Source: Flavobacteriales bacterium (GTDB lineage Bacteria; Bacteroidota; Bacteroidia; UBA10329). Taken from it: a stretch of DNA of 64,000 nucleotides. The translations under genes and the position numbers were made by a program. The notes below the pieces were generated by a model. The model saw only the letters and a list, made by a program, of their open reading frames with translations. It was not told where the DNA came from and ran no database searches. Below, piece by piece: positions 44,120-64,000 of this stretch (its first letter is position 1; every line of letters begins with the position of its first letter). The stretch lies in the NCBI GenBank assembly GCA_016124845.1, contig WGMW01000004.1, forward strand, positions 4,242 to 68,241, written 5' to 3'.

Positions 44120-44497
44120 TTACTCTATACCTTTTCGAAATCTTGCTAACGCGTACCCGATTATACTTCCAAATAATGTTCCTAGCGTACAGTCGGTAAT
44201 GTTCTCGGTATATCCAAGAATGCATATTGGTATTACCACAGCCAGAATAGTTGCTAAATCGAACGCGTACTTCCACCACTTGGGATTAAACAGGTCGGCA
44301 AGGGATTTGCCTATTTGTCCGAATACAGGTGTGACCTTTTCTATTATCTCGGCAAGCTGTAGTTGTTTGGCTTGTTCCTCAAGTACTGAGGTCATTTGAG
44401 TAACCTGCTGCTTCAGTCCTTGATTCTCTTTGGTTAACTGTTCAATGATGTCTTCTGGTCGTGCTTCTGGTTGATGTTCCTGTTCTTCTTTGCTCAT
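44120..44497 (-). CDS. hypothetical coiled-coil protein with a C-terminal transmembrane segment
   Basis: 125-aa ORF inside the element. Confidence 0.4.
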   Translation of the reverse strand: MSKEEQEHQPEARPEDIIEQLTKENQGLKQQVTQMTSVLEEQAKQLQLAEIIEKVTPVFGQIGKSLADLFNPKWWKYAFDLATILAVVIPICILGYTENITDCTLGTLFGSIIGYALARFRKGIE

Positions 44498-44603
44498 GGT
44501 GGGGAGAATTATTTAGAAGTCCGTGATTGCAACCATCGTGCCACTAAGAAGCCAAGAATACAATAGTTTTTGAATTTGTAATAAAATTAGTTACATTAGT
44601 ACC

Positions 44604-45242
44604 ATGAAAGAAAAAGCAATAATCATATCAAGGTGTTCTACTAATGAGAACCGTCAGGATGTAACCCGTCAGTCAGAGGAACTACGGTCTAAGTATGGGC
44701 AATCGTATACTCTGGTCAAAGAATTCAGCTACTACCAATCAGGTACTAAGAATGACCAGGTGAATGATGAGATATTGGAATACGCCATTGCCAATGATGT
44801 TAAGCATATCATCGCACTCGAAATTTCACGGATTTCTCGTAAGATTTCATCGTTTGCCCTCTTCCTAGAAAATTGCAATTCTCGCCACATCAACATAATC
44901 ATAGATAACTTCGGTATGCACACCTTGCTTCCAGATGGAACGCAGAACGCCTTAATTCAGAGTACGCTTAGTATCGCGAGTGCCTTTAGTTCAATGGAGC
45001 TATCGTTGATAAAATCGAGATTGGACAGTGGACGGGAAAAATATATCCGTGATGGTGGTAAACTGGGGCGTAAGGTAGGTTCGACCGAAAGCGATGCCAC
45101 AACCCTCCAAAAACATTCGGACGTGGTAAAATACTTGAGACAACGGCAATCGGTTCGCATCACTATGAAACTCACAGGAAAAAGTAGTGGTACGGTTCAG
45201 AAGGTAAAACGAATTCTTTCAAGCACGAAGAAAGCCGCGTAA
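44604..45242 (+). CDS. serine recombinase (resolvase/invertase family) with a C-terminal HTH
   Basis: N-terminal IISRCSTNENRQD (catalytic Ser context) and a C-terminal helix-turn-helix. Confidence 0.8.
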   Translation: MKEKAIIISRCSTNENRQDVTRQSEELRSKYGQSYTLVKEFSYYQSGTKNDQVNDEILEYAIANDVKHIIALEISRISRKISSFALFLENCNSRHINIIIDNFGMHTLLPDGTQNALIQSTLSIASAFSSMELSLIKSRLDSGREKYIRDGGKLGRKVGSTESDATTLQKHSDVVKYLRQRQSVRITMKLTGKSSGTVQKVKRILSSTKKAA

Positions 45243-45257
45243 TTCACGCGGCTTTCT
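45228..45257. repeat. palindromic hairpin AAGCCGCGT-AATT-CACGCGGCTT (element-internal hairpin family, copy 1; bidirectional terminator)
   Basis: Overlaps the recombinase stop. Near-identical to the copies at 45737-45764 and 46377-46408. Confidence 0.5.
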
Positions 45258-45277
45258 TATAAGCCAAATGCTTCTGT

Positions 45278-45712
45278 TCACTTGGAACGCCTAGATTCCA
45301 CTCCCTCCTTAAATCCCTTGCAATAGCAGGGCGTTGGATTTATAAGTGAGTTGGCTGATTGATTGTGTCTCTGAACATAACTATGACAGCAACTGCTACA
45401 GTCACTACCCATATCAGAAACCATCTGACCAGCCGCAAAGCCTCGGTCATAGTCTGCTGGTCTACTACTACAATCTATGGCTTTTGGGGAATCACCACCA
45501 GTCAATTCAGCAAACCCAATCACCACCACAAGTGTTAAACACAACGTTATATACATGGAAGCCAGTAGTATCGACATCCTTCCCTTAGTAAATGCCTCCC
45601 ATACACCTACTTTCGCTATGTGCCCTTGATTCTCTCTATAGAACTTCTGAAGCAAATAAATGCTGTAAAGCAGCAGCAGAAGAAAGATTCCATTTATCAC
45701 CCAAACCATCAT
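45278..45712 (-). CDS. hypothetical membrane protein
   Basis: 144 aa with 3 hydrophobic segments. Inside the element. Confidence 0.4.
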   Translation of the reverse strand: MMVWVINGIFLLLLLYSIYLLQKFYRENQGHIAKVGVWEAFTKGRMSILLASMYITLCLTLVVVIGFAELTGGDSPKAIDCSSRPADYDRGFAAGQMVSDMGSDCSSCCHSYVQRHNQSANSLINPTPCYCKGFKEGVESRRSK

Positions 45713-45736
45713 TAAATCTAAGGATTACAATTGGAG

Positions 45737-45764
45737 GGAAAGCCGCGTGATCACGCGGCTTTCT
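45737..45764. repeat. perfect palindrome GGAAAGCCGCGTGATCACGCGGCTTTCC (hairpin family copy 2)
   Basis: Seen directly in sequence, between two minus-strand element genes. Confidence 0.5.
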
Positions 45765-45778
45765 CCATTAATATTTGT

Positions 45779-46021
45779 TCAATCACATGAACAGGTGGTT
45801 TGTGCATCACCAAGTTCGTTTTCCACCCAGTCTGTCCATTCTTCGGCATCATCAAACAGTGGGTTATTATCGGAAATGTCTTCCCAGCAAACGCCTTGTT
45901 CATAATTGGCGTAAATCGGAGTGTTCACATCTGAACATTGACAACATGGGTTTGAATTCTGACTGCATGATACAAGCAGAAGTGAGACAACCAGTAGAGG
46001 TAATGCATTGATTCTTTTCAT
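45779..46021 (-). CDS. hypothetical Cys-rich small lipoprotein
   Basis: 80 aa. Lipobox LLVSC, multiple Cys residues, acidic C-terminus. Confidence 0.4.
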   Translation of the reverse strand: MKRINALPLLVVSLLLVSCSQNSNPCCQCSDVNTPIYANYEQGVCWEDISDNNPLFDDAEEWTDWVENELGDAQTTCSCD

Positions 46022-46118
46022 GTGTTGTGATTTGGATTAATAGTTCCCCGTAAACATATAAAAATAGGTTCACATGTGAACCTATTGGGTCGAGGTCTCA
46101 TTTGCACCTTTCCAGTTC

Positions 46119-46346
46119 ATGGAATCTGAACGGGAAGTAACATTTCGAACGGCATTTGGGGAGCGTGTGAGACGTTTACGAATTGAAAAGGGGCTAAGCC
46201 AATACCAACTGGCGGACATTAGCAATCTGGACAGGTCAACCATCAAAAGAGTGGAAGCTGGCACAATAAACACCACTTTGGAAACCGCAAAGGCTATTGC
46301 CGAGGCTCTCGGAATGACACTAAGCGAGTTGGTTGACCTTGGTTAA
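46119..46346 (+). CDS. XRE family helix-turn-helix transcriptional regulator
   Basis: 75 aa. RLRIEKGLSQYQLADISNLDRSTIKRVE matches the Cro/C1-type HTH. Confidence 0.75.
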   Translation: MESEREVTFRTAFGERVRRLRIEKGLSQYQLADISNLDRSTIKRVEAGTINTTLETAKAIAEALGMTLSELVDLG

Positions 46347-46376
46347 TTGCATGGTATAAATCATTATCGGTATGAA

Positions 46377-46408
46377 GGAAAGAGCCGCGTGATCACGCGG
46401 CTCTTTCC
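46377..46408. repeat. palindrome GGAAAGAGCCGCGTGATCACGCGGCTCTTTCC (hairpin family copy 3)
   Basis: Seen directly in sequence, downstream of the XRE gene. Confidence 0.5.
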
Positions 46409-46759
46409 TCTTATTAAATCTCTAGTTGTTGCTGAATCTGTCCTATTTCTTTCCGCAGCTTTAGAATCATCAACTGTTTGCGGTATCGTTCTTTCTTAGC
46501 TAAATCGGTTTCCACCTCCACTTTTTTCTCGGCAACCGCTATTCTGCTGTCTATGTCATCTGTCATATCACTTCCTCTTCAATTGTCCTCCACGATGCGG
46601 AGGTTATTCGTCAAATTCATCATAGCGAACACGTGTTCATATCTCCCCTTTTTGGTACAGATTTTCCAAAAAATTTGCGAGGCACATGACCCGTGTTTTG
46701 TACATGATTTACATTCATCACCGATGAGTTAGGTTACGTAGTCCCCGGTCCCCTCCCCG

Positions 46760-46963
46760 TCAATCGTAGGCAGGGGGGTGTAGTGTAAACTCAATTTGTT
46801 GGTAAAGCTCACGTAAAACTTTCTTCCGTTTCTCTGGTATCTGTTTCAACCATGCGTATGACCCTGTGGCAGTTTTTGCCTCTTCCAAGTCCCTGAACAA
46901 CCTTGGATAACCATATTGTAAGACGGCTTGGTCAAATATGTCTAATTCGTAATTCTCACTCAT
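46760..46963 (-). CDS. hypothetical small protein
   Basis: 67-aa ORF overlapping the upstream gene by 8 nt, inside the element. Confidence 0.35.
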   Translation of the reverse strand: MSENYELDIFDQAVLQYGYPRLFRDLEEAKTATGSYAWLKQIPEKRKKVLRELYQQIEFTLHPPAYD

Positions 46964-47492
46964 AATCTTTCGTTTTAATAGTGGTTATGGAGACCCCCGT
47001 TTTGGTGATGTATTCTATCCATCGTTCCAAGTCGTGAACCTCTTGCTGGTAATAGTTCATTTCTGAAAATGCCGTTTTCAATAGTTGTACAAACTGATTT
47101 CGGTCTTCTGCTTTGTAGTAGGCATGAATGTGATTATGCTTGTTTACCAAGCCCTGCTCGATGGTGTAGTGGATTTCCACGTCCTTGTATCCCATTCCTC
47201 TTACTGCGTACCCGATAAGCTCGTGTATGTCACTTTCGCTAATCGGTGTGTTTGGGTCTATCGTTAACGAATAATACCCTGATGACCTTGGCAACTTACG
47301 TTTTCGCTTTCGTTGCCTCTTGAATACAGGTATTAGCATGTCGTGTATTCTCCATCCGTTCATGCCATCCTTGTATAGTACAGTTTCTGGTTTGGTCTCA
47401 GATAATTGTGCTGCAATCTTCCTTACTTGTCTCACACTGAGGTCTGTTTTCTCTGCTACCTCTTGAGTTGTGTATTCTTCCTTTCTAATCAT
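46956..47492 (-). CDS. hypothetical DNA-binding protein with N-terminal HTH and a possible HUH-type (H-I-H) motif; candidate replication/mobilisation or excision protein
   Basis: 178 aa. TQEVAEKTDLSVRQVRKIAAQL is HTH-like. Also a basic KRQRKRKRK linker and a C-terminal ...KHNHIHAYY motif. Confidence 0.45.
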   Translation of the reverse strand: MIRKEEYTTQEVAEKTDLSVRQVRKIAAQLSETKPETVLYKDGMNGWRIHDMLIPVFKRQRKRKRKLPRSSGYYSLTIDPNTPISESDIHELIGYAVRGMGYKDVEIHYTIEQGLVNKHNHIHAYYKAEDRNQFVQLLKTAFSEMNYYQQEVHDLERWIEYITKTGVSITTIKTKDYE

Positions 47493-47912
47493 TCTTTAAT
47501 CTTTAATTAAGTCCATGTCACACCCTAGTCGGAGTATCATTTGACCTCTAGCGTGACTTGGTTATTTATATATAAATAGGACGGTCTTAGTCAAAAGACC
47601 GATGTCGGACTGAAAAAGTCTGCCGAGACTTAATTAACCGAATATTTCAAGTACAAACCGTAACATTTGGTCAGTCTTGTGGTGACGTTTTGGACGCCTG
47701 AAAATGTGGTTTTAGAGCGTAACCATAATTTTAGATGGATAACCATCAACGCTTCTGATGAATCGGCAACTGGCTTAGGTTACGACTACCAGTTATTCAG
47801 GAGAAACAACAAACCGTTCGGTTCTAAAGCAAACATATCACGGATTTTTGACACTTTCCACAATTTGGATGAATTCGGGTGAAATTTGTTATGGATTGTA
47901 CCGCATTTCTAT

Positions 47913-49598
47913 TCACAAATCGAATTGGTCTCCCAGTGCTTTCAATACACTATCCGTTCGACCATCGTTAAACCCTGTCTTAAGATATGCATCTGTGACA
48001 CCCAATGAAGAATGTGCCATTGCTTTAGAAACATCCATGGTTGAAGCACCAGAATTCATCATAATGTTTGCAAAAGAAGTCCTTGGTAAATGAGTGCTGA
48101 ACGTCCTATCGATTCCAATGTGCTTCTGTAACTGCTTCAGGTGGCGATTGTAAACAATACCAGCTTTGGTGACTTTTAGGTACTGCTGTTCGTCTATGAT
48201 GGAGAAATCGTTCTGCTTACCAACGTTGGCAAAGTCCGAATCTTTAAGCATTCCAAAAACGAATCTAGTGGAGGTTCGTTCGTTTGTTGCGAACTCATTA
48301 ATAACGCCAACGCTATTATCAAAATGAATCCTGTTGAGTTCGGCTATTCGGGTTTTTATTTGCGTGACGAGGCTCTTGTAGAATAGCTCATAGTTCGCAT
48401 AGAGAGAGCTAAAGTCAAACTTGTATAAAGAATACGTGATACGTCCTTCTGATTCAACAAACTTACAAAGACAGCCCAGTTCTGTCTTTAGTTCTTCCAA
48501 TGTCATAGACATGATGACCTTTGCTGAATGCAACCAATACGACTTGTCAATAGCTACGCTAAGTGGCACATTTCCAATCAATTCATCTGGAAACCCATAC
48601 GGTGGTGTCGGTAACATGCCATATTGCATTTGTTGTAAAAGCCGTAGCCGTTCTTGTTGGAGTGCACTAACATCAGCCTGAGCCTCTATCGGAGCATTTA
48701 CATCCACTTCAAGCCCCAGCAGCCGCTTTAATAAATCCAAAATGATGTCCGTAATAGCAATATCGACAATCGCATTGGTTTTGAACATATTATAGACGAT
48801 TCTACCATTATGAAGATTTCCATACCTCAGAGTAACGAGGTCTGACACCCTCATTCCACCTGTGAAGAACTGAAATAGAAATAGGTCGCGAGCCTTAGAT
48901 AAGCGAGGAATATCAATTTTAGAATCTATAAGTTTAGTTATGTCATCTCGGTACAAACTTTCCTTCCTTTTCGGTTGTTTACGCCCATAATCATATGAAT
49001 AGAAAGGGTTGTTCCCAACAATCACGCTTTTGTCCTTTTTCGCGTGACCATAGATAACCTGTAATATTTTGAGATAATGAGTGGCAGTATTGGATTCCAT
49101 GCCCCCCTTCTTCATATAGAACCGAAATTGGTCTAAGAAATCTTGGGTCAACTCGGAGAACAACAAATCCGTCTTGCTCTCCGATGCCAAGAACTTCTTT
49201 AGTTTTTTGTACACGGTCTGAAGTTTTATTCGCGTACCCGTTTTATCCTTCAGCTTCGCACTGTTCAAATACCCTTGGTAAAACGCTAGAAATGATGCCT
49301 TACTGTTGGCACCATCGTATGTGTCGAACGACCTACCATCAGCCAACACCACCGAAAGGTGCTGCTCAATAGTGTCGTTGTATCCCTGGTAATCAATTTT
49401 AACCGACTTCTTGACCCTTTGTTTGACCTTATCCCAGTACTTAATGTCTAATGGAGGCAGTTTTAATGACCTTACACTGCTTTTGCGGTTTTCAACTCGC
49501 TGAAGGAACAAGTAGCCAAGAGTGTCATCTTTACTAATTTTGCGAAATATGACCTTGATACTTGAACTCATCAGTTTTGTCGAACAATTGTCAAACAA
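47913..49598 (-). CDS. tyrosine-type site-specific integrase
   Basis: 561 aa with the C-terminal catalytic region (...HLPRTSFANIMMNSGASTMDVSKAMAHSSLGVTDAYL, R...H.R.Y context). Lies adjacent to the tRNA-Arg attachment site. Confidence 0.9.
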   Translation of the reverse strand: MFDNCSTKLMSSSIKVIFRKISKDDTLGYLFLQRVENRKSSVRSLKLPPLDIKYWDKVKQRVKKSVKIDYQGYNDTIEQHLSVVLADGRSFDTYDGANSKASFLAFYQGYLNSAKLKDKTGTRIKLQTVYKKLKKFLASESKTDLLFSELTQDFLDQFRFYMKKGGMESNTATHYLKILQVIYGHAKKDKSVIVGNNPFYSYDYGRKQPKRKESLYRDDITKLIDSKIDIPRLSKARDLFLFQFFTGGMRVSDLVTLRYGNLHNGRIVYNMFKTNAIVDIAITDIILDLLKRLLGLEVDVNAPIEAQADVSALQQERLRLLQQMQYGMLPTPPYGFPDELIGNVPLSVAIDKSYWLHSAKVIMSMTLEELKTELGCLCKFVESEGRITYSLYKFDFSSLYANYELFYKSLVTQIKTRIAELNRIHFDNSVGVINEFATNERTSTRFVFGMLKDSDFANVGKQNDFSIIDEQQYLKVTKAGIVYNRHLKQLQKHIGIDRTFSTHLPRTSFANIMMNSGASTMDVSKAMAHSSLGVTDAYLKTGFNDGRTDSVLKALGDQFDL

Positions 49599-49677
49599 AG
49601 CTAGTATGTTCTACAAAAAATGAAGAATGTTTGATAATCAATAATCATATAAACTACTGATATTCAGTAGGTATAAT

Positions 49678-49752
49678 GGCTTCGTAGTTCAATGGATAGA
49701 ATAGAAGTTTCCTAAACTTTTGATACAGGTTCGATTCCTGTCGAGGCTACCA
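49678..49752 (+). tRNA. tRNA-Arg (anticodon CCT), with encoded CCA
   Basis: Cloverleaf readable by hand: acceptor GGCTTCG/CGAGGCT (two G-U pairs), D arm GTTC-AATGGATA-GAAT, anticodon arm GAAGT-TTCCTAA-ACTTT, T arm ACAGG-TTCGATT-CCTGT, then ACCA. Confidence 0.85.
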
Positions 49753-49758: not shown

Positions 49759-51474
49759 CTACATTTTCTCCGCCCACTCCAAACCATCAGGCAATTCGGA
49801 GGACGAAAACTCCAAGTGCAGCACCCTTCTCGGTTTCTGTTTCGCTGAGCGATTGGAAGAGTGAAGCAACAACGGCTTCATCAGCAACACGCCTCCTGCC
49901 GAAATTTCGCAATCGTACGGAATGCTGTTTTCTGTGATGGTTTTTATCTCATCCGTTGATAGAATTTTATTGTGACTTCCCGGCATTACGCGCAAACATC
50001 CATTCTCCCGGTCCGCATCATCTAAATGAACTCGAATGGTGAAGACGTTGCGATTGATCTCGACCGGTGGCAGCACGCTGATGACATCATCGCGCTCGGC
50101 CCAGCCAGTGAATCCTTCAACCTCCGCTTTTTGCTTCACATGAATGGTTCTATCCTGATGCCAACCTACCGACCAATTGGCACTCGGTTGCTTGTTCATG
50201 TAAATGGCTTTTACCAAAAACGCCTTCGGGTCGACAGACGATACCACGCGCTGCAAATTCTTGTTGAACAACATCGGCTTGAGCTCAGGAATGGCCTCGA
50301 GCAAGCCCCGCTTCACATAATTCTGATTGCTCTCCGCGTCAAACGCCTTTTCCAACAATCGGTTCATCTGCTTGATGGCGCGCTGGGAATACACATGATT
50401 CAGAATTCCGAAACCCTTGTGTTTCATCTTTCGCGAAGCACTGATCAACCCCTTTTCATTCAGATCGGTATTATAGAGGTCAATAGCCCCTTCCAATCTA
50501 TCGCGTATGCTTCTTTTGAGTCGCTCCGGTTTAATGACCATCAAGCCATCTCCAAAGGCCAAAAGTTCTTTCTCCAACTCAAAATTGTGCTGAACATGAA
50601 TTCTGAATGTCATGCCGTAATGGTCTCTCTCCAGCAGCTGTTGTGACCAGTGCAACGGTTTCGTCATCACGTATGGCGCATGCGTGTGATTCACGAAAAA
50701 ATCAACCTCCATCGGCTTTAAAGATGGACTGACCGAAACCCCGATCGCATCTCTGAAATAATCTTCGGCATTGAAATCAGGCCTATCCCAATAGACAGCA
50801 TCTGAATACTCGATCTGAATTATTCTGTCCAAGGCTGGAGTCATAAGTTGCGCCTGTCTGCCCTTGGCTCCGATGAGAAACCAACGGTTTCGGAACTCCT
50901 TCAACAGATACGGATGAAACTCGAATGTCTGCGGATGACGTGCCTTGAATGATTGGTACGTAAGCCGAATGACGTGCTTTTTGATGATGGCCTGATACAG
51001 CGGCTCCAAGAAATCCAACCCTTTCAGGTTCTCATTCTTTTCCATATCGATCACCGGTTTCTGATGCGTTTTCTGCGCGTAAACGTGGTCTTCGAGCTTC
51101 TGCACCATCGCATCCAATTCCTTGAAGTGCGAAAACCCTTTGAACTCCTTCAGAAACTCCACGGTCTCCATCAAACGACCAAGGTCTTGGTCAGTAATTG
51201 GAATGTTGGTGATACTGTAATCGCGGTCTTCGTAGGTGTAATACTTCTTATCGGTGACAACAATGGGCGCATTGTACCCCAACTTATCGCTGCGCATCAT
51301 CTGAATATCACCCTGCACCGTTCTCCGGCTCACGCCTTTGTCAATGCCTTCATATTCATACAACGCATCCGAAACGGCATCAATCAGATCTTCCAATGTC
51401 CATTGGCGATAATGGTTCTGCAAACACTTATCAATGGTCTTGTAGCGAATAAGCGCGTTCCGATTTACAGGCAT
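49759..51474 (-). CDS. WYL-domain transcriptional regulator fused to a C-terminal phytanoyl-CoA dioxygenase (PhyH)-like Fe(II)/2-oxoglutarate dioxygenase domain
   Basis: N-terminal HTH (NRNALIRYKTIDKCL), WYL-like core (RLTYQSFKARHPQTFEFHPYLLKEFRNRWFLIGAKG), then ~200 aa with PhyH-like motifs (WHQDRT..., ENGCLRVMPGSH, RRVLHLEF). Confidence 0.7.
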   Translation of the reverse strand: MPVNRNALIRYKTIDKCLQNHYRQWTLEDLIDAVSDALYEYEGIDKGVSRRTVQGDIQMMRSDKLGYNAPIVVTDKKYYTYEDRDYSITNIPITDQDLGRLMETVEFLKEFKGFSHFKELDAMVQKLEDHVYAQKTHQKPVIDMEKNENLKGLDFLEPLYQAIIKKHVIRLTYQSFKARHPQTFEFHPYLLKEFRNRWFLIGAKGRQAQLMTPALDRIIQIEYSDAVYWDRPDFNAEDYFRDAIGVSVSPSLKPMEVDFFVNHTHAPYVMTKPLHWSQQLLERDHYGMTFRIHVQHNFELEKELLAFGDGLMVIKPERLKRSIRDRLEGAIDLYNTDLNEKGLISASRKMKHKGFGILNHVYSQRAIKQMNRLLEKAFDAESNQNYVKRGLLEAIPELKPMLFNKNLQRVVSSVDPKAFLVKAIYMNKQPSANWSVGWHQDRTIHVKQKAEVEGFTGWAERDDVISVLPPVEINRNVFTIRVHLDDADRENGCLRVMPGSHNKILSTDEIKTITENSIPYDCEISAGGVLLMKPLLLHSSNRSAKQKPRRVLHLEFSSSELPDGLEWAEKM

Positions 51475-53717: not shown

Positions 53718-54479
53718 TTGGTTGAATCCTACATGAATCGCATAAGATTGAGACTATTTACTTTGCGGTCGATGAGCGCAGCGGTTCAACTTGATGCAGA
53801 AAAGATCATTGCAACGATCGATCGGCTTGAAAAGCGGATAGCAGACCGATTTCCTGATTCGGGTCTGAGGAAGATCTGTGGGGAATTTCTGGAGATTGCC
53901 AGTCACAGCAAACAGAATATCGAATGGATAGGTGCTCCGAATATTCCGCTTCGCCTGTTTTCTGCCATGGCCATTCTCATTGGCCTGAGCGGATTGATCT
54001 ACAGCATCACTTATATCGACCTGCGAATTGACAACACCACCTTGGGGAACATGGTAACGATCTCTGAGGCCGTATTCAACGACCTTGTTCTTATCGGTGC
54101 GGCCGTCTTCTTCGTTGTGAGTATCGAGTCGCGGGTCAAACGCAACCGCGCACTCAAATCGTTGAATGAACTGCGTGTGATCGCCCATGTGATCGACATG
54201 CTTCAGCTGACAAAGGACCCGAACCATTCCATGACCGGACGCGAAGACACGGTCAATTCACCGAAACGCACATTGTCGAAAGTGGAGCTGCAACGCTATC
54301 TCGATTATTGCTCTGAGGCAACTGCGCTCATTGCCAAGGTGGCCGCTCTGTATTCGCAGAGTTTGCCGGATGAAGTGGTGGTTGGCGCGGTCAATGAGAT
54401 CGAGGTGCTCAGCACAGGATTGAGCCGTAAGATCTGGCAGAAGATCATCATTCTGAACACACGCCAGACCGAAGTGTGA
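53718..54479 (+). CDS. hypothetical membrane protein
   Basis: 253 aa with two central TM helices. No recognisable family. Confidence 0.55.
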   Translation: MVESYMNRIRLRLFTLRSMSAAVQLDAEKIIATIDRLEKRIADRFPDSGLRKICGEFLEIASHSKQNIEWIGAPNIPLRLFSAMAILIGLSGLIYSITYIDLRIDNTTLGNMVTISEAVFNDLVLIGAAVFFVVSIESRVKRNRALKSLNELRVIAHVIDMLQLTKDPNHSMTGREDTVNSPKRTLSKVELQRYLDYCSEATALIAKVAALYSQSLPDEVVVGAVNEIEVLSTGLSRKIWQKIIILNTRQTEV

Positions 54480-54500: not shown

Positions 54501-55316
54501 ATGAAAGCATACGAGAACAATCTGGATGTTTTCGCTTCCGTTTTCAAGCGATCGCTGAAACATCATTTCAGGTTTGAGGGATTGAAACTGAATAAAATGA
54601 TGGTGGTGGCAGATGAAAAGCAATTGGATCAATTGGACGCATTTGCCGAAACGTATTGCGATGCGCGACCACAGTTCGTTTATGATGAACAATTCGATTG
54701 GAACCGGCTGAAAAACTTCATCGGTCAGGAGAAACCAGATGTCATTCTTATTCAGCGTTTTCTCGGAATCCATGCGGAAGGATTGCGGTTCAGTATCGGC
54801 CCGATACTGGAAAGCATTACGCAGGAACTGAACATTCCTGTGCTGATTCTTCCCAAGGACCGTTCGGAGTTCAGGATCCGGACCATCGGCATTGGCTTCG
54901 ACCACCAGATAGACAACAGCAATTTGGTGAACAGGGCCTTGCTGATGAGCAAATTTGCCACCGCGCTGCAACTCATTCACATCGAAGATGAAAGCATCTT
55001 CAACTATTACATGGATGCCATTGCCAAAATACCGGGCATCAACACGGAGTATGCTTCCAAGAATATCAGAGAGACCATTCTTGACCTTTCTGGCGATTTC
55101 TTTTCGGATGTGAAGGAAAAGTTGGCAACCGAAAACCTGCAGGTCACCGCCCGCTGCTCTTTCGGAAATGTGGCCGCAACGTATGATCGGTTGGTGTCTG
55201 AGAACAACATCGACCTGCTTGTTTTTGAGGCCGAGGACGATTCGAAACTTGCCATGCACAGCTTGGGACAGTCACTTACCATTCAATTTCCAGAAAAAGC
55301 CGTACTGCTGGTATGA
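54501..55316 (+). CDS. universal stress protein family protein (tandem UspA-like domains), tentative
   Basis: 271 aa. Two alpha/beta halves each ending in hydrophobic ...LVF / ...VLLV strands typical of Usp domains. Assignment from recall only. Confidence 0.55.
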   Translation: MKAYENNLDVFASVFKRSLKHHFRFEGLKLNKMMVVADEKQLDQLDAFAETYCDARPQFVYDEQFDWNRLKNFIGQEKPDVILIQRFLGIHAEGLRFSIGPILESITQELNIPVLILPKDRSEFRIRTIGIGFDHQIDNSNLVNRALLMSKFATALQLIHIEDESIFNYYMDAIAKIPGINTEYASKNIRETILDLSGDFFSDVKEKLATENLQVTARCSFGNVAATYDRLVSENNIDLLVFEAEDDSKLAMHSLGQSLTIQFPEKAVLLV

Positions 55317-56686: not shown

Positions 56687-56804
56687 AGGTGTTACAACAA
56701 AGCAAACGGAAATAATAACCGTATTGTCACAGACCTATCGTACCACTTTACCTCCAATCCATTAGATTTGGACAACAAACAATCGCAAAATCAAAACATA
56801 GGAC

Positions 56805-58175
56805 ATGTCCGACTCATTCGATCTTTTAGACCAGCTTGGAGATTCTAAGAAAGTGGAGAACCTCAAGGCCAAAATTCAAAAGCAAAAAACATCAGACGTA
56901 GTATCAAAACTCGATCAGATTGAATCTCAGATAGACCGCGCGGTCTCGGAACAGCGCGACCCGGAAGAGATCGTTTCCGGCATCATCGAATCGAATTTCG
57001 AAACCCTGAACGGAGATGTGAATCAGACCGAACAGGACTTGCAGGAACTGATGCTTCATTTGCGTGGCATGTTGGATTCATGCGGTGGCGAATTCTCCAA
57101 ACTTCAGGAATTGAACCCAGAGGAACTCGGATGGATAGAACAGGCCAAAAAGAAGCTGGCCGATGCCGAAAATGAGCTTGCGGGTGCCAAAGGAATGAGC
57201 AACGCTTGGAATATCCTTTTCGGCTACAAGAACAGCCAGATCTCTAAAAAGGAGCAGGAACTGACACAGAGCCAGACCAACCTGAAGGATACGGAAGCAC
57301 GCGCCAACAAAAGCTACCGCGACCGTTTGAAGAATGCAGACATTGGTGAGTCGTTGAACCGGGTGATCAGCCAAGTTCAAGGAATGGTGGGCATTATTGA
57401 GGATATGATCCTTGATGTTGAGAAGCAGATCGATGCGCTTAAAAACCGCAAGGAGCTTGCTTTTGAAACAAAGGAGAAAGCTGCGGTGGTGATGCGTGAT
57501 AAGAAAAAGGAGCTCGAAGACATTGAGGCGCAACTGAAAAATGCCGAAAATGAACTTACAGAACTGCCTAACAACAGCCCTGAATACACCGAGCAGGAGA
57601 AAAAGATCGCTGATCTGCGCGAGAAGCGCGCAACGGCCAAAGGCAGTTACAATATCGCTTTGGGCATCTTTCAAAGTAAGGAGCGTTTCGTAGATCAGAT
57701 CGTGATCCATTTGGAAGCGCAGACCACTACCAAAAACAACCTGAAGCAGTTGATCGGTCAGTTGAAGAGTGATACGGAAGAACGTGTCACCACCTACGAA
57801 TCCGGTCTTCAGCTGATTCAAACAGCCACCGCGCAAGAGGCCGCCTCGCTCTACGAAGAAGCAGGTGTGAAGACGGATCAGAAAATAACCGAGATAGCAG
57901 CGAAGGTGCTGGTAGGTTCAGAAAAAGACCGCGTGGAACGCGTGAAGAAACACCCGGAGCGTATGACCGAGCTGCATAAAGTGCTTGTGGCCATGGCTGA
58001 AGCAACTGCCAAGTACAAGCAGGAAGATGCCAAGATCATGGAGCAGCACAGCAAGAAATTCGGTATCGATGTAAAGGAAACGTTCTCGCACCGTTACGAA
58101 AAGTCGGCCGATGCGCCTGCAGCGGCTCCCTCAGAGCCAAGCAAGGACAAATCTGTGAACGACCTCATGGAGTGA
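56805..58175 (+). CDS. hypothetical long alpha-helical coiled-coil protein (first gene of the six-gene operon); possibly TelA/PspA-like, unconfirmed
   Basis: 456 aa, almost entirely heptad-like charged helices. No enzymatic motif. Confidence 0.65.
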   Translation: MSDSFDLLDQLGDSKKVENLKAKIQKQKTSDVVSKLDQIESQIDRAVSEQRDPEEIVSGIIESNFETLNGDVNQTEQDLQELMLHLRGMLDSCGGEFSKLQELNPEELGWIEQAKKKLADAENELAGAKGMSNAWNILFGYKNSQISKKEQELTQSQTNLKDTEARANKSYRDRLKNADIGESLNRVISQVQGMVGIIEDMILDVEKQIDALKNRKELAFETKEKAAVVMRDKKKELEDIEAQLKNAENELTELPNNSPEYTEQEKKIADLREKRATAKGSYNIALGIFQSKERFVDQIVIHLEAQTTTKNNLKQLIGQLKSDTEERVTTYESGLQLIQTATAQEAASLYEEAGVKTDQKITEIAAKVLVGSEKDRVERVKKHPERMTELHKVLVAMAEATAKYKQEDAKIMEQHSKKFGIDVKETFSHRYEKSADAPAAAPSEPSKDKSVNDLME

Positions 58176-58193
58176 TCGGCCTGACCGTATTTC

Positions 58194-59285
58194 ATGAAAA
58201 CCTCTGAAGTAGCCGAACATTTTACACCCCTCGATAGAAGCGTGCTCGAAGGTGAGCACCCTTACTACGAGTACTTCAAGTACCTGAAATTTGCGTTGGA
58301 GCAGTTCATCAACTCGGTTGACAACTACCAAGGAGATGAACCCTACGAGGCCGCGATCATCAAAGATTTCTCACAGAAGTTCCTGAATTCCATCGAGGTG
58401 CTTTCGCTGAAGTACGCATTCAATGAAACACACCCGATGTTGATCGACCTGACGGAATCAGGGTTTCCGAATCACATGGAGTTCAAGCGGCTGGAGGACG
58501 ACCTGCAGCGCAAAGCGGATGAGCTGAAAGAAGGACCATCGGTGGAAACACTCAAAACGTTGATCCTGGATCAGATGATCCGAAGCAAGACCGAGCCCGT
58601 ACGGTTGTTGAAACAGATCAGCAAGCGTTCGTATTTTGAGATGATCGATGGACGGAAACTTTTCAAGGAATTCGTTTCGGGGCCGTTGAAGCTCATCTCG
58701 AAGGGAAATGACTTCAACTGGCGCTATCTGTACAGTTGGGGTTCGTTCGATAGTGTCACCAATCGGCCGTACATCTACATTCTCGTGTTCGACCATCATC
58801 GCGAAGATGCAGAAGCGGAAAAAGCCCTCCACAGCTTCGGTTTTGTGGACAGCATCCGGAAGACCACGCACAACACCGCACCGCTAAAGGTGATGATCTC
58901 GGATATTGACGCATTGAGCGAACTCATTATGCCCAAGGTGCTGAAGCGCATTGCCATTGGCCCGATCTACGGAGCCTATGCACAGGATGAGCATCCGTTC
59001 ACAACCATGCTCAAAAAGCGGTTCGATTACAAGGATTTCATCTTCCGCTACGATGCGGAGGTCATTTTCTCCATCGGTCAATCTCGCAAAGAGAGTTTTC
59101 TCTCCAAAGGGGAACTGCGGCAGATATTCTATATCGATGAATCGAACAAGGAGTGCATGGAAAAGATGATCTCTCGCCTCAACAAATACAGCATTACCAG
59201 CCATGCGGTGTGGCAACATCTGAGCGAATATCATCCCGAAGCACTGAATGAACTGGTAGTGCAGCCATACATATATCATCATTGA
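58194..59285 (+). CDS. hypothetical protein (operon gene 2)
   Basis: 363 aa, soluble, no recognisable motif. Starts 19 nt after gene 1. Confidence 0.6.
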   Translation: MKTSEVAEHFTPLDRSVLEGEHPYYEYFKYLKFALEQFINSVDNYQGDEPYEAAIIKDFSQKFLNSIEVLSLKYAFNETHPMLIDLTESGFPNHMEFKRLEDDLQRKADELKEGPSVETLKTLILDQMIRSKTEPVRLLKQISKRSYFEMIDGRKLFKEFVSGPLKLISKGNDFNWRYLYSWGSFDSVTNRPYIYILVFDHHREDAEAEKALHSFGFVDSIRKTTHNTAPLKVMISDIDALSELIMPKVLKRIAIGPIYGAYAQDEHPFTTMLKKRFDYKDFIFRYDAEVIFSIGQSRKESFLSKGELRQIFYIDESNKECMEKMISRLNKYSITSHAVWQHLSEYHPEALNELVVQPYIYHH

Positions 59286-61246
59286 TGGAGAAAACAGACT
59301 CATCCTTACTGATCATTAAAGAAGAATACCTTGAAGAGTTCAAGGAGGAAGTAACCGGTTATTTGAAAACCGTTGGTTGGGTGGCCGATGTCAATAAGAC
59401 CAAAAGCGATATCGATCTTTCCTTTCTCATTCAGGCTGGTAAAGCTCTGAACCTGAACGAGACGGATGAACTTTCCATCATCCGCAACGCGGTTCGCATC
59501 AGCAACGACCGCGTCATTCTTTCCACTACGTCAAGCGTCATCCTCAATGCCCTGAAAAAGGGCTATTGTCTTGGAAAATATGTGGGCGATCAGTACAGCC
59601 GTGCCTGTGGTTTGGAACTTCTCATCCAAAAGAACAAGGACGGAAGTTTGCATCAGTCCGAACTGCCCGAATTTCACGATAAGTCGCAGACACAGGCGGC
59701 CGTGGTGTTGATGGTCGCTTCGAGTTACGTGCAATTTGCGCTTCGCGATCATCTGGCCGATGAAACGTCTTCCATCAACATCGATTTCAACGGAATTCCG
59801 GAAGTGAACCTGAACCGTCCGTCAAAGGCCATTCAGTGTTCGTTGTATTACTACGCGGCCTACCTCGAACGTTCGGGTGTGGTGAACGGTGATCTGGACT
59901 TCCTCAAGATCACCGAACTCTATTTCCAGCGATTGAGCGAAGAGGTGAAACTTCGCAAAGACGGCTTCAAATACGTGGAGCCGTTCATAGAGAACCATTA
60001 CAAATTGGAAAAGACCGATTTTGTGGTTCAAGGCTTCGAAACCATGTCAACAAGTGTGACGGTCGGCATGAGTTTCAACCCCACGCGGATGGAAGACATT
60101 GTGGCCAACAAGCAGGCCAAGCACCTTTTTCAGCGTTATGCCGAACGTCTTCTCTGCTACGATCTGGAAACCAAGCGGAATCCGTTGAACGAGTTGGGCG
60201 GACTGCCGAATGTGACCATGGCAGACGGTAAACCCGGAACGGGAAAAAGTATGCTTATTGCAGCCACCGCAACGTTGCTCAAGGAACGCTGCGACCTGCT
60301 CGGGTACGACTTCCTTTTCTGGCCGCTGCCAGAGAATATCGTTTCCACTTACCAAGGCGGAACGGCCGAGCGGGCCATGGAGTGGTTCAAACCCATTCAA
60401 GACCCAACCAAGATCATTTTTGCGCCCATTGATGATGCGGAGAACAACTTGGAGGAACGTACCCGCCAAGGCGTTTCGGCCGGGGTCCGTGAGTTCATTG
60501 GCGTGTTCCTGAGAAATACCGAAGGAGCTTATGCGGTGAACTATGGCAACCGTCTCATCAGCCTGTTCACCAACATTCCCGATCAGATTGATAAAGCGGT
60601 GCTTTCCCGCATTCAGATGCGTGTAAAAATGGATGGTGCCGGAACAGACAGAGACTTTATTGATCAGGATTACCTGTGGTGGCGGAAGTACGAGAAACTT
60701 GAACAAGGCTTCGTCAACTCGCCTCCGCCAAAAGGCTACGAATACATGGCCGCTCAGAAGCGACCTGAATCGCTGAATGAACTGCTGCATCACAATTATG
60801 AGTTTACCAATGAGGATGTAAAGGCCATTTTTGATGAGACGATGGCCAACGCAGGTTCCACTTCGCACGATTTCTTCGGTGATCTCTATGCCGCCATCCA
60901 ACGGAAATATCCATTCTTCTCATCTCGCGATCTACGAAACATTCAGAAAGCCGTGGATGCGCGTGTGATCGATTTCGATCTTCCCGAAATATGGTGGGAG
61001 AAACCGGAGGATTTCTTCCTGAAGGATTACGACACCAAGGTGGAAATGCTAAAGGTGCTGATGAAGGAAAACCTGAAGGGCTCCAATTTCTCGCAACTTC
61101 GGTTGTACGAGGCGTTGAATTACATCGAAACATCCATCCGCATCAACGAAACGGGCATCAACCGTGAGATAAAGGAAGCGGCCAAGCGACTGTACATACA
61201 GGGCGAGGCGCGCGAAATGGCAAGCAAAGGTCAGATCCATGATTAG
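59285..61246 (+). CDS. AAA+ ATPase with a ~300-aa N-terminal domain of unknown function (operon gene 3)
   Basis: Walker A GKPGTGKS, Walker B-like IIFAPIDDAE, and a sensor-1 region. Classical-AAA-like features. ATG overlaps the gene 2 stop (TGATG). Confidence 0.75.
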   Translation: MEKTDSSLLIIKEEYLEEFKEEVTGYLKTVGWVADVNKTKSDIDLSFLIQAGKALNLNETDELSIIRNAVRISNDRVILSTTSSVILNALKKGYCLGKYVGDQYSRACGLELLIQKNKDGSLHQSELPEFHDKSQTQAAVVLMVASSYVQFALRDHLADETSSINIDFNGIPEVNLNRPSKAIQCSLYYYAAYLERSGVVNGDLDFLKITELYFQRLSEEVKLRKDGFKYVEPFIENHYKLEKTDFVVQGFETMSTSVTVGMSFNPTRMEDIVANKQAKHLFQRYAERLLCYDLETKRNPLNELGGLPNVTMADGKPGTGKSMLIAATATLLKERCDLLGYDFLFWPLPENIVSTYQGGTAERAMEWFKPIQDPTKIIFAPIDDAENNLEERTRQGVSAGVREFIGVFLRNTEGAYAVNYGNRLISLFTNIPDQIDKAVLSRIQMRVKMDGAGTDRDFIDQDYLWWRKYEKLEQGFVNSPPPKGYEYMAAQKRPESLNELLHHNYEFTNEDVKAIFDETMANAGSTSHDFFGDLYAAIQRKYPFFSSRDLRNIQKAVDARVIDFDLPEIWWEKPEDFFLKDYDTKVEMLKVLMKENLKGSNFSQLRLYEALNYIETSIRINETGINREIKEAAKRLYIQGEAREMASKGQIHD

Positions 61247-62507
61247 ACTGATCGAGTCGAAGCTGTTTGGCGACCGCCTTTTTTACATCGACAGTGCGTT
61301 GATGCAGAAGCGCTACAACCGATGTTTGGAGGACATTGGAATTGAACCCACCAAGCTCAAGAATTTCCACGTGGACGGTTGGGGCTGGAGCCCCGAAATA
61401 GCCAAGGAGAAGGACGATCGATTCTACCTGTCTCACGGACTCGCCAATCCGTTTGCCATTATCGTTTCTCCCGATCAGAAAGACTGCCCCGTGTACATGC
61501 CTTACCACACGTTTGATTGGGAGATACACAGACGTGTTTTCGAAAACTATGCGTTGCAGATAGAGGACATCACCTCGCTTAATGCCATTTGGTTCGAATT
61601 GGATCAGAACATCAGCTCCTACCGATCGCCACAGGATCTGTTGATGATGGAGGTGGTGAATCTGAAATTTAATGTGGCCGGGGATCTTGCAACTGCTGCA
61701 GCCGAACAGAAAAAACTGGTCGGCACATACCTCACCGAACCCCGTAGTTGGATGAACGCTGAACTTCGCGAACAGATCATTGCAAGTAGCAAGAAACACG
61801 GAGATCTACGCTACCGCAATCTCGATATGCCAGATTTCCCATTTTCAAATCTGTCTTCTTATTACACCTTGGCGTTCAACGGCATGTTCGTGTTCAAAAA
61901 GACCGCGGGCGGCAAACCCATCCTGATCTTCGAAGACAACTCGTCTGAGATGAGCGGGAACGGCAATCACTTGCACATTGAGTTCAATTTGGAGGACAAG
62001 AGCTTCATCCCCTACCTCTACAATTTGGATCTTTTGGACAGCGAAACGGATTGTTTTCTGGATCATATTGAGTTGCTTGAGTTGCAGTTGGAACACATGA
62101 TCGTTTCTGCGGCCATGCAATTGGACGAAACCATTCCGGTGGACAAGATGACGCGCACGCAGCGAAAAGGACTGATCGGAAAATTGGAGAGCGCGTCCTT
62201 GCTGGATGAAAACTATTTCGAACTCGAAATGGTGATCAATAAACTGGTAAATGGCCCGGATAAAGTTCGGATATCGGAAAAGCTGAACCAGTACATGCTG
62301 CAACCACACGTTACAACCACTCCCGAACAGAAAACCGTACTCTGGCACCTGATCTCCAAGGTGCAGAAAAACAACCCGGTGCTACAATTTGCTTTCGATA
62401 AGACCTCGTTCTATCAAGAATACCAAACATGGAAGCCCCCAATGCAGGAATGGGCGATCGGTTGTATATTGAGAAACCGAGGCATTTACGCTAAACTCAT
62501 CAAATAA
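61239..62507 (+). CDS. hypothetical protein (operon gene 4)
   Basis: 422 aa. Overlaps gene 3 by 8 nt. Confidence 0.6.
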   Translation: MIRLIESKLFGDRLFYIDSALMQKRYNRCLEDIGIEPTKLKNFHVDGWGWSPEIAKEKDDRFYLSHGLANPFAIIVSPDQKDCPVYMPYHTFDWEIHRRVFENYALQIEDITSLNAIWFELDQNISSYRSPQDLLMMEVVNLKFNVAGDLATAAAEQKKLVGTYLTEPRSWMNAELREQIIASSKKHGDLRYRNLDMPDFPFSNLSSYYTLAFNGMFVFKKTAGGKPILIFEDNSSEMSGNGNHLHIEFNLEDKSFIPYLYNLDLLDSETDCFLDHIELLELQLEHMIVSAAMQLDETIPVDKMTRTQRKGLIGKLESASLLDENYFELEMVINKLVNGPDKVRISEKLNQYMLQPHVTTTPEQKTVLWHLISKVQKNNPVLQFAFDKTSFYQEYQTWKPPMQEWAIGCILRNRGIYAKLIK

Positions 62508-63031
62508 TGGATACGCTCCTTGCATTTTTCATTGGTCTTGCCGCTGGCATCGCCTACTATTTTCTGGATTATAAAAGTCTGACCAACAGCTATCGAAGTT
62601 GGTACAAACTGACGCACAAAGACCCGTTGCCAAATGATGTGGAGCAAGGGTTTGTGTATGCGCAGCCTTTCTCCGGCAAGCTCTATAGTGCCGTTTTCAT
62701 TGCCATGATCATCACAGTAATCATCATTCTGACAGGAAGCGCAAATATTCTCATCCAGTTGCTTTATGGTGTTTTCATCATGGTCGGACTGATGGTGTCG
62801 TTTTACCTCGCTCCGCTCATTTTCCGACATGCGCCTTCCAATGTCTCCAAGCTGAAAAAGCACTTGGATAGAATTGATGAGATGGAAGCGGACCTCAAGA
62901 CCGATAAATTGGAAGAGAAACCTCAGCCGGTCGAACCTGCAAAACCAGAATTGGAGGAAGGGAAAAAACCGGGTGAAGACAAGAAGGATGACGACTGGCG
63001 CAAGGGCATTAAAGATTATTTGAATGGCTGA
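62507..63031 (+). CDS. hypothetical membrane protein with a K/E/D-rich tail (operon gene 5)
   Basis: 174 aa, 3 TM helices. Start overlaps the gene 4 stop (TAATG). Confidence 0.6.
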   Translation: MDTLLAFFIGLAAGIAYYFLDYKSLTNSYRSWYKLTHKDPLPNDVEQGFVYAQPFSGKLYSAVFIAMIITVIIILTGSANILIQLLYGVFIMVGLMVSFYLAPLIFRHAPSNVSKLKKHLDRIDEMEADLKTDKLEEKPQPVEPAKPELEEGKKPGEDKKDDDWRKGIKDYLNG

Positions 63032-64000
63032 GCAGACTCAAACGCCCGAAGAGGACAAGAACCGTATCTACTGGTTCTTCCATAACCTCAGAACCCGTAT
63101 TGGCGGTGCCATTAAAGGTTGGATGAAACGACATCCGATCTGGGTTGTCATCCTTTTTCTCATTGCTCTCTATACGCTTTTTGTCGACCGAGGGAGTGTT
63201 CAACCGCTTGTACTCTTGGTACGACAATATTTGGCATTGGTGATCCTGATCTTGTTGGTATTCGGCCTGTTCGCACTTTTCATCCGAAAACGGACCTGGA
63301 AACAGGCCATTGTTCCTTCAATTCTCTTTTTGGCATTTTTGGTGTTGAGCTGGTTTGTGGGCCCATACGTTCACAATTACTTCAGTCTTTACATTCATTA
63401 CGCAAAGTTGAACAAGGTGGAGCTGGCCGAAATGCCCATCTCGGGTCACGAACGGATTCAACCTGTCAATTCCATTCGCACGTTGATCAACCAAGAGGCA
63501 TTGAGTGAAACAGAGGATGCCACAAACCCGCGCTTCACCAAAGGAGCAGACGGAAACTACTACTTCACAGCAGCTGTTGGGCCCGCCACTCATTATTGGA
63601 TCCAACGGTTCAGCAAGCACATGTACGAAGTGCTGAATGTTCCGGCAAATCTGCCGTCACCGGTTTTTGACAGTAAGCATCGCTCCAAGGTCAATTTCGA
63701 GATCGGGGAGCAACTTCTTTTCAGCCATAAGACCGAAAATGCGGTCATCAAACGTTTCGGTATCGATGCTTTTCTGAACTGCGAACCGGCTGAACCGCTC
63801 TACCTTCGCGATGATTCTGGCAATTGGGTACAGGTGGTTCCGATCGTTCGTTGGACGGGTTTCTTTTTTCCGCGACCCGTGTTCGGTGGTGTATACATCA
63901 TTCAGCAGGAGGGGGGCGATGACAATTACTTTAAACGCGTTCTTTTAGGAAAGGGAGACTTCATTTCGCCAGAGGAAATTGCACAGCACAGCTATCTTTC
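63029..64000 (+). CDS. hypothetical membrane protein, N-terminal 324 aa (operon gene 6; continues beyond the window)
   Basis: Not in the ORF track because it has no stop in the window. Read by hand from ATG 63029 (ATGGCTGA overlap with the gene 5 stop), open to the window end. Three TM helices, then a soluble domain. Confidence 0.5.

Follow-up and report, generated by a model that had tools for sequence, protein, structure and literature searches.

The DNA analysed here is a stretch of 64,000 nt from a Flavobacteriales metagenome-assembled genome (GCA_016124845.1, contig WGMW01000004.1, positions 4,242 to 68,241; hereafter the window), and the subject of this study is a block of six genes at its downstream end. 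From position 56805 to beyond position 64000, the plus strand carries six open reading frames (ORFs) that all run in the same direction and are joined by 1-nt and 8-nt overlaps plus one 18-nt gap. We refer to these genes as g1 to g6:

56805-58175, plus strand: g1, 456 aa, an all-helical protein forming an elongated bundle, which may serve the ATPase as scaffold or client
58194-59285, plus strand: g2, 363 aa, a soluble protein of an unnamed family
59285-61246, plus strand: g3, 653 aa counted from the ATG, with an N-domain of unknown fold, a classical-clade AAA module and an extended lid
61239-62507, plus strand: g4, 422 aa, a DUF6638 (PF20343) protein with an alpha/beta N-domain and a helical C-domain
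62507-63031, plus strand: g5, 174 aa, a small membrane protein with three hydrophobic segments by hydropathy
63024 to beyond 64000, plus strand: g6, the first 325 of 531 aa of which lie inside the window

The g2/g3 and g4/g5 junctions read TGATG and TAATG, respectively, and the g3/g4 and g5/g6 junctions are 8-nt overlaps of the sequence ATGATTAG and ATGGCTGA, respectively; in g3, a TTG is present at 59282, ahead of the ATG. An earlier note on this DNA, made from the sequence alone, had described a same-strand six-gene block with start/stop overlaps, and both the ORFs and the overlap sequences agree with that description, the only correction being that the gap between g1 and g2 is 18 nt and not 19 nt. 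The last gene extends 619 nt beyond the end of the window, and the whole of it is found on an identical public contig (L001, positions 11786-13381). Because g6 ends at 531 aa and the next gene on L001 is convergent, g6 is the final gene and the unit consists of exactly six genes. In GenBank, their products (MBI1286239.1 to MBI1286244.1) are named either "hypothetical" or "AAA family ATPase".

To describe the distribution of the block, we surveyed one genome per species (185,579 genomes) for relatives of g4 and identified a DUF6638 relative in at least 478 of them. Synteny, clustering and gene order statistics were obtained from the best 80 loci, each of ~20 kb. These loci come from five phyla, that is, Bacteroidota, Patescibacteria, Desulfobacterota, Pseudomonadota, and Deinococcota. 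Among Bacteroidota, the carriers are Flavobacteriales, Chitinophagales, and cultured Flavobacteriaceae (Maribacter, Muriicola, Gaetbulibacter, and Mangrovimonas); the other carriers are ~12 Patescibacteria lineages, Desulfobacterota including Desulfonema magnum, Gammaproteobacteria, and one Trueperaceae genome. A tblastn analysis with the six proteins revealed that the order g1-g2-g3-g4-(g5)-g6 is kept nearly everywhere. In the 57 loci with space for the entire block, g1 was detected 52 times, g2 53 times, g3 55 times and g6 54 times, with no violation of the order. When all predicted proteins of the 80 loci were clustered, the six families were present in 59-73 loci each and were the sole shared ones, the next commonest cluster comprising 8 proteins from 6 loci. 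The genes that flank the block are unrelated housekeeping genes (e.g., those for GidA, DNA polymerase III delta', isocitrate lyase, ferrochelatase, and Lgt), and the divergence of g3 tracks that of every partner (Spearman correlations of 0.74-0.86). Because only the families of the block are shared, their order is kept, the flanks are unrelated and the divergence of the components co-varies, we conclude that the block is inherited and transferred as one piece. The arrangement of the six genes is far beyond chance, and the prediction of a dedicated multi-protein module is borne out by this synteny; as to whether the block moves as a unit across Bacteroidota, a check that the earlier note had proposed, it does so, and its synteny is also conserved across phyla. 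We regard the block as a real, widely distributed and uncharacterised system, the function of which we infer.

The six components differ in their rate of change. In the closest clade (14 loci), mean identity to the window protein is 74.7% for g1, 68.1% for g3, 55.7% for g6, 51.2% for g2, 45.8% for g4, and 37.2% for g5. Thus, g1 is the slowest-evolving component among close relatives, ahead of the ATPase. For a coiled-coil protein this is unusual, and it points to many contact surfaces on g1.

Two variations were observed inside the block. In loci L014, L033, L034, L037, L058, and L063, extra ORFs of 80-390 aa lie between g2 and g3, g3 and g4 or g5 and g6, and some of them recur in two loci (clusters c19, c36, c67, and c73); both lineage-specific accessory components and artefacts of crude ORF calling are conceivable. 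In one divergent clade that includes a Paceibacterota genome (L038, L040, L045, and L048), the slot of g5 is occupied by another family of 185-200 aa (cluster c21) that is undetectable with g5 of the window, and the small membrane subunit either diverged quickly or was replaced there.

Candidate regulatory sequences precede g1. In the window, this is the following element:

56763-56770, plus strand: candidate promoter -7 box TAGATTTG of the Bacteroidota TAnnTTTG type, 35 nt upstream of the g1 ATG

A TAnnTTTG element is located at -26 to -46 from g1 in the window locus and in 12 of its closest relatives, compared with 1 of 41 in a coding-region control; TAGATTTG is thus a putative promoter element. 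A sigma-70 promoter and terminator scan was uninformative for this organism, and an Rfam scan returned tRNAs only. Flavobacteriaceae loci (within L055-L082) carry a different non-coding box, TTTnnCGAAATT[GA], 48-84 nt upstream of g1 (e.g., L056:5471-5483). It precedes g1 in 17 of the 19 Flavobacteriaceae loci and lies farther upstream in one more, and of its 21 occurrences in ~409 kb, counted on both strands, 19 are upstream of g1. Its sequence departs from that of the standard Bacteroidota -7 box and suggests a binding site for a dedicated regulator or an alternative sigma factor. Farther upstream of it, several Flavobacteriaceae loci also share the sequence TGTAACA...CTAC.

Among the six proteins, g3 is the one with recognisable relatives of known activity. 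It matches PF00004 with an E value of 7e-9 (36.7 bits; cut-off 21.2), as do 29 of 29 orthologues, and its profile matches Cdc48/p97, AFG2, Rpt4, and Vps4 in the PDB with E values down to 3.7e-12. The motifs of the AAA module are as follows:

60227-60250, plus strand: Walker A GKPGTGKS, with G315, P317, G318, T319, G320, and K321 invariant in 29 orthologues
60344-60361, plus strand: pore-loop-1 equivalent STYQGG, which aligns with the Cdc48 pore loops SKMAGES and SMWYGES; Q357 and G358 are invariant
60428-60445, plus strand: Walker B region IDDAEN, with D383, D384, and E386 invariant, which aligns to DE(I/L)D of Cdc48 and Rpt4
60566-60622, plus strand: sensor-1 FTNIP (N430) and arginine-finger region LSRIQMR (R442 and R446)

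The Walker A motif that the earlier note had singled out is thus found at residues 315-322 of g3. The aromatic residue before Q357 is Y356 in the window protein and F in the consensus of the 29 orthologues. N430 and R442 are invariant and R446 is nearly so, and in alignments with classical AAA proteins this stretch corresponds to their ATNRPD..A..R. The motif set is complete in the 29 orthologues with one departure, an Asp where the catalytic Glu is expected. On the basis of these matches and motifs, we classify g3 as a classical-clade AAA ATPase, and it is probably an unfoldase ring that threads polypeptide through its aromatic pore loop. The ~300-aa N-domain (approximately residues 1-300) has no relative in Pfam or the PDB, consistent with the earlier description of a domain without known motifs. 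An MIT domain, which had been suggested for this region, was not observed among the matches listed for the 29 orthologues at a Pfam E value of 1 or less (the 25 commonest of 26 matched families), nor was CDC48_N or any other family recognisable in the N-domain, and the profile of the N-domain has no PDB relative.

The helical protein g1 has no such kinship. Its AlphaFold model, of medium confidence (pLDDT 73, pTM 0.51, shallow alignment), is wholly helical and elongated, in agreement with the earlier view of the 456-aa protein as all-helical, and contains a hairpin of two helices of 74 and 94 residues. Three short segments stand out:

56805-56831, plus strand: N-terminal motif MSDSFDLLD; residues 1-11 have a pLDDT <50 and are disordered in the model
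57201-57227, plus strand: hydrophobic loop NAWNILFGY between helices H105-129 and H141-176, a candidate membrane-contact tip
58155-58172, plus strand: acidic-hydrophobic motif VNDLME at the C terminus, preceded by ~25 aa of disordered linker; residues 425-456 have a pLDDT <50

The N-terminal end is kept as M[SA]D.FDLL in two Bacteroidota clades that are ~28% identical overall, and the C-terminal end reads VNDLM[DE], DDLL[SG] or ELSDMLG depending on the clade; proteobacterial g1 homologues are without these terminal motifs. In the loop region, N136, G140, and K142 are invariant in the orthologue alignment, and the distant homologues of Sinorhizobium meliloti and Vibrio keep the equivalent segments FIGIFSR and IVGIFFKKK. 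The loop may therefore touch the membrane, and taken together these features are hallmarks of a protein that would dock via tethered peptides and contact a membrane.

It had been suggested that g1 could be kin to ESCRT-III, PspA/Vipp1 or TelA, and our searches do not bear this out. We compared 27 diverse orthologues with Pfam at an E value of 1 or less, and Snf7 (PF03357), PspA_IM30 (PF04012), and, at the sequence level, TelA (PF05816) are not among the 25 commonest of the 57 matched families. The g1 profile matches Escherichia coli PspA with a probability of 0.24% in hhalign and gave nothing meaningful against PDB sequences. The fold match of the g1 model to PspA is no better than that to dozens of unrelated bundles. 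Tripartite alpha-helical pore-forming toxins (AhlABC, Hbl, and Nhe) and the SipB/IpaB translocator coiled coil are also among the closest known systems, and the weak likeness of g1 to SipB, HBL, and AhlB/C recurs but is no more specific. Membership of g1 in the PspA/ESCRT-III group is not supported by the listed Pfam matches or by the profile probability.

Two further soluble proteins are encoded in the block. No match to g2 was found in Pfam, NCBIfam, PADLOC, PHROGs or the PDB. Its family comprises 289 clusters among 1.84 billion representatives, the full-length listed members being ~340-415 aa with no longer fusions. We considered g2 as a paralogue of g3 or g4, and hhalign finds no relation to either. 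By contrast with the other partners, g4 matches a Pfam family, DUF6638 (E=5e-36, 124.9 bits, cut-off 27, profile positions 2-387 of 439); its model is confident and has no fold match in the PDB. Profile searches against PDB sequences with g2 and g4 returned nothing meaningful.

The remaining two proteins are membrane-embedded, as predicted by the earlier note, with three hydrophobic segments each. In g5, these segments span residues 2-20, 59-77, and 81-106 by hydropathy and are followed by a charged tail of ~70 aa that ends in DDDWRKGIKDYLNG (62987-63028). The basic motif at its C terminus is conserved within clades as DDWRxGVKxFLDK or KSARERLKDKGMIK, and the positive-inside rule places the tail in the cytoplasm; its plan of a linker plus a peptide is shared with the ends of g1. 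The predicted segments of g6 are as follows:

63135-63185, plus strand: first transmembrane segment of g6
63228-63284, plus strand: second transmembrane segment of g6
63306-63362, plus strand: third transmembrane segment of g6

Three hydrophobic segments are present in 60 of 67 g6 orthologues, and a conserved domain of ~410 aa follows them. Given the positive-inside rule and the RKRTWK loop between the second and third segments, this domain would lie outside the cytoplasm. It has no Pfam or PDB relative.

Scans of the six proteins against the Pfam, NCBIfam, PADLOC, and PHROGs libraries gave AAA and DUF6638 only, and member-by-member scans of the g1, g3, and g6 orthologue sets gave nothing further. 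The earlier statement that the module fits no characterised system is confirmed by these scans, and its companion, that only the AAA core is recognisable, stands for g1, g2, the N-domain of g3, g5, and g6 and fails for g4, which belongs to the uncharacterised family DUF6638.

Not all relatives encode the complete set. Trueperaceae and a megaplasmid of Vibrio vulnificus/parahaemolyticus carry g1-g4 without membrane genes, and in Desulfonema g1-g4 are followed by a gene for a sigma-70 region-4 protein. S. meliloti has the arrangement g1-g2-g3-[IS element]-g4-DUF2333, in which a DUF2333 membrane protein takes the position of g5/g6; the identity of its g1 and g2 was established by profile comparison (98.3% and 99.8% probability, respectively). 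We considered whether g6 is itself a relative of DUF2333, and this was ruled out because hhalign finds no relation. In S. meliloti Ak57, an ISRm16 transposase gene and a small endonuclease-domain gene lie between the g3 and g4 homologues (L085:7060-8805), and the operon may be disrupted by this insertion; the corresponding PLSDB record is labelled pSymB, is 3.7 Mb long and is probably the chromosome. Within the plasmid collection, only distant matches were found, on large non-mobilizable records that are filed as plasmids (such as that of S. meliloti) and on Vibrio megaplasmids. Because g1-g4 are paired with g5/g6, with DUF2333 or with nothing, the core activity would be cytoplasmic and the membrane part a swappable accessory. 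Judged by gene content, g1-g4 are the core and the membrane partner is exchangeable.

The surroundings of the block in the window are as follows. The earlier note had listed an SPFH protein, a tRNA pair, a Usp-like protein, an ArsB-type permease and an integrated element nearby. A Band_7 gene, tRNA-Asp/Lys and an ArsB/CitMHS permease gene are present; the label "Usp-like" for 54501-55316 is not supported, this protein having no Pfam match at an E value of 0.01 or less; and a tyrosine integrase gene lies beside tRNA-Arg about 7 kb upstream. In the 80 loci, the SPFH gene, the tRNAs, the permease, the integrated element and the NAD-salvage genes downstream are not conserved neighbours, and thus these genes say nothing about the function of the module. 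Two plus-strand genes between tRNA-Asp/Lys and the permease gene, at 53718-54479 and 54501-55316, encode proteins without a Pfam match at the same threshold, and the second of these genes shares 4 nt (55313-55316) with the permease gene, its stop overlapping the permease start. The integrated element, small and possibly mobilisable, comprises the following features:

43299-49752: region that holds the element, which lies beside tRNA-Arg(CCT) at 49678-49752
44604-45242, plus strand: serine resolvase
46956-47492, minus strand: relaxase-like fragment
47913-49598, minus strand: tyrosine integrase

A methionyl-tRNA synthetase gene (41032-43077) lies upstream of these genes. Between tRNA-Arg and a tRNA-Phe/Tyr pair, the minus strand (49759-51474) encodes a 571-aa protein with WYL/WCX regulator domains and a PhyH (phytanoyl-CoA dioxygenase-like) domain, an unusual fusion. 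Directly after g6, beyond the end of the window (L001:13400-20833), there is a convergent gene for an NrtR-type regulator (NUDIX plus winged helix), followed on the plus strand by genes for PRPP synthetase, NAMPT, a Macro domain protein, three unknowns, a metallo-beta-lactamase-fold protein and a KptA/Tpt1 (PTS_2-RNA) protein, a gene content suggestive of NAD salvage and ADP-ribose processing.

What the module might do has to be read from its parts. We tentatively propose, at somewhat under an even chance, that it is a membrane-tethered AAA+ remodelling machine acting on an assembly of g1. The six proteins would form a self-contained machine at the cytoplasmic face of the cell membrane. Its motor would be g3, an AAA+ unfoldase ring that threads polypeptide via the aromatic pore loop. 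Its client would be g1, which may assemble on or near the membrane through the conserved hydrophobic loop and present its disordered N- and C-terminal acidic-hydrophobic peptides as handles to be engaged by g3. The soluble partners g2 and g4 would help g3 as adaptors, regulators or enzymes, whereas g5 and g6 would form a membrane platform in which the tethered basic tail of g5 recruits the cytoplasmic part and the large extracytoplasmic domain of g6 provides a link to some feature of the envelope. By hydrolysing ATP, g3 would then disassemble, recycle or reshape the g1 assembly. The conservation of g1 beyond that of the ATPase among close relatives fits a protein with many contact surfaces and supports this proposal, as do the overlapping genes and their co-inheritance, the invariant AAA motifs, the threading unfoldases that are the nearest solved relatives of g3, the terminal peptides and hydrophobic loop of g1, the tail of g5, the exchangeable membrane partner and the precedent of bacterial PspA/Snf7-AAA+ pairs.

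Several observations weigh against it. What was observed directly are the six genes, their conserved synteny, the complete AAA motifs, the hydrophobic segments, the motifs at the protein ends and the absence of relatives; an interaction between any two of the six proteins is itself a proposal, as are the client role of g1, the membrane topology and the physiological role. Only generic helical-bundle fold matches were obtained for the model of g1, making polymer formation a guess. Both g2 and g4 carry many invariant polar residues and could be enzymes, which pure remodelling leaves unexplained. Because D384 occupies the position of the catalytic Glu, the ATPase activity of g3 may be atypical. 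The variants without membrane genes (Vibrio and Trueperaceae) weaken an obligate membrane role. Finally, the patchy spread across phyla and the several divergent Bacteroidota versions also suit a mobile conflict system.

The last point leads to a rival explanation, in which g1-g4 sense infection and a variable membrane module (g5/g6, DUF2333 or none) damages the membrane and aborts infection. The patchiness just mentioned, a conserved core with interchangeable membrane partners and the one copy on a Vibrio megaplasmid are consistent with such an anti-phage or conflict system, and the earlier note had also seen a likeness to ATPase-driven defence systems and asked about co-occurrence with defence islands. 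However, no system in PADLOC-DB 2.0 was matched; the sub-threshold hits are generic (JetC coiled coil, 0.0056; IetA AAA, 0.01; NsnC, 0.016), and that to IetA rests on the generic AAA core. The 139 proteins flanking 30 of the loci are mostly metabolic or housekeeping proteins, with no PADLOC family in more than 2 of the 139. No viral relatives were found in IMG/VR or phage records, and PHROGs gave generic AAA matches only. In addition, the slow evolution of g1 is unlike that of typical arms-race sensors or effectors, and the module is found in reduced Patescibacteria genomes. Neither the defence likeness nor the co-occurrence with defence islands is supported by these results, and we consider a conflict function very unlikely. 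Those same housekeeping flanks, together with the vertical inheritance suggested within Flavobacteriaceae, would suit quality control of membrane or envelope proteins, in which g6 senses or captures damaged or misplaced envelope proteins and g3 extracts or unfolds them (cf. Msp1, FtsH, and Cdc48-ERAD), with g1, g2, and g4 as scaffold and cofactors and not as clients.

For quality control, it also speaks that the nearest solved relatives of g3 include Cdc48/p97 and the ATPase domain of the i-AAA protease, that g6 combines three transmembrane segments with its conserved ~410-aa, putatively extracytoplasmic domain, and that the cis-element upstream of g1 in Flavobacteriaceae suggests specific, possibly stress-linked, regulation. 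A binding fragment of the envelope-stress regulator ChvI lies inside S. meliloti SMc02733 (PMC3687685), a weak link because SMc02733 is not confirmed as a gene of the module. Nevertheless, there is no recognisable protease partner or substrate-recognition domain, the g1-g4 core is found without any membrane gene in some genomes, and quality control leaves the exceptional conservation and the terminal peptides of g1 unexplained, making this explanation unlikely. The terminal peptides could alternatively be export signals, and an AAA ATPase encoded beside two membrane proteins, as well as the weak SipB-type similarity of g1, would be in line with a secretion or insertion apparatus in which g3 unfolds g1 or another client and passes it to a channel of g5/g6 (loosely as for EccA of type VII secretion or Bcs1). 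Yet g5 and g6, with three transmembrane segments each, resemble no known translocon, core-only variants are without a membrane component, the proteobacterial g1 homologues are missing the terminal motifs, and no additional substrate genes travel with the module in the 80 loci, so that we regard a secretion function as highly improbable.

Bacterial classical-clade AAA proteins with dedicated partners are few (FtsH, ARC/Cpa, the CbbX/EccA/SpoVK group and occasional Vps4 transfers), and each of them defined a process. The module adds an AAA family whose five partners match no characterised family. It is kept together in lineages as far apart as marine Flavobacteriaceae and genome-reduced Patescibacteria, with a reduced form in S. 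meliloti and Vibrio. Because the latter two are genetically tractable, the function of the module is directly testable. If the remodelling model is true, ATP-driven turnover of helical assemblies at membranes would have been invented independently here; should the module instead serve defence or secretion, it would be a new system of that kind. Either way, DUF6638, the several hundred clusters of the g2 family and DUF2333 gain a gene context and a testable hypothesis. A more far-reaching version of the remodelling model, which we hold to be doubtful, is that the module is an undescribed, ancient and horizontally spread machine for membrane remodelling or envelope maintenance, a non-homologous functional counterpart of ESCRT-III/Vps4 in five phyla, consisting of a new classical AAA unfoldase family, a novel type of membrane-binding helical polymer made of g1, two new-fold partners (g2 and DUF6638), and a trans-membrane sensor/anchor pair.

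Comparison with known systems places these proposals in context. At the level of named families, g4 is a full-length member of DUF6638 (PF20343), and both this name and DUF2333 (PF10095) denote uncharacterised families. In our literature search, we found no description of the six-gene module and no mention of DUF6638 or PF20343, whereas DUF2333 appeared once and incidentally, and SMc02733 incidentally only. The locus of the Psp system (PspF-PspA-PspB-PspC) has a similar composition, with one AAA+ and one coiled-coil protein plus a pair of small membrane proteins. Its AAA+ protein PspF, however, is of the NtrC-type enhancer-binding kind and has a domain for DNA binding, whereas g3 is of the classical clade. 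Searches with the six proteins (Pfam and NCBIfam at an E value of 1 or less, and PADLOC) reported no Psp family, and no DNA-binding domain was reported for g3. The best profile matches to the g3 module are Cdc48/p97, AFG2, and proteasomal Rpt, which have the same layout of Walker A, pore loop, sensor-1 and arginine finger. This likeness is confined to ~130 residues with an E value of only ~1e-12, and the differences are that g3 has one AAA module compared with two in Cdc48, an N-domain unrelated to CDC48_N, D-D in place of D-E in Walker B and a lid insertion of ~90 aa.

In terms of logic, the proposed machine resembles NSF/SNAP/SNARE, in which a classical AAA protein and adaptors disassemble a membrane-anchored helical bundle. 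This is an analogy only, as no component is related in sequence beyond the AAA core, and SNARE-type fusion is not known in bacteria. The comparison with Vps4/ESCRT-III (archaeal CdvB/CdvC and eukaryotic ESCRT) and with bacterial PspA/Vipp1-AAA+ pairs goes further. Pairs of bacterial PspA/Snf7 proteins and classical AAA+ ATPases are on record, in gene contexts that do not contain the present set (PMC11237479). Moreover, g1 is without sequence relation to Snf7 or PspA and about twice as long as ESCRT-III proteins, the N-domain of g3 has no MIT domain among its listed matches, and g2, g4, g5, and g6 are without counterparts. What the systems have in common is a classical AAA protein with an aromatic pore loop, an all-helical partner with a conserved terminal peptide after a disordered linker, a membrane context and encoding in an operon. 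By analogy, the logic of Vps4-ESCRT-III or NSF-SNARE, built from unrelated parts, would be the best working model for the six-gene module.

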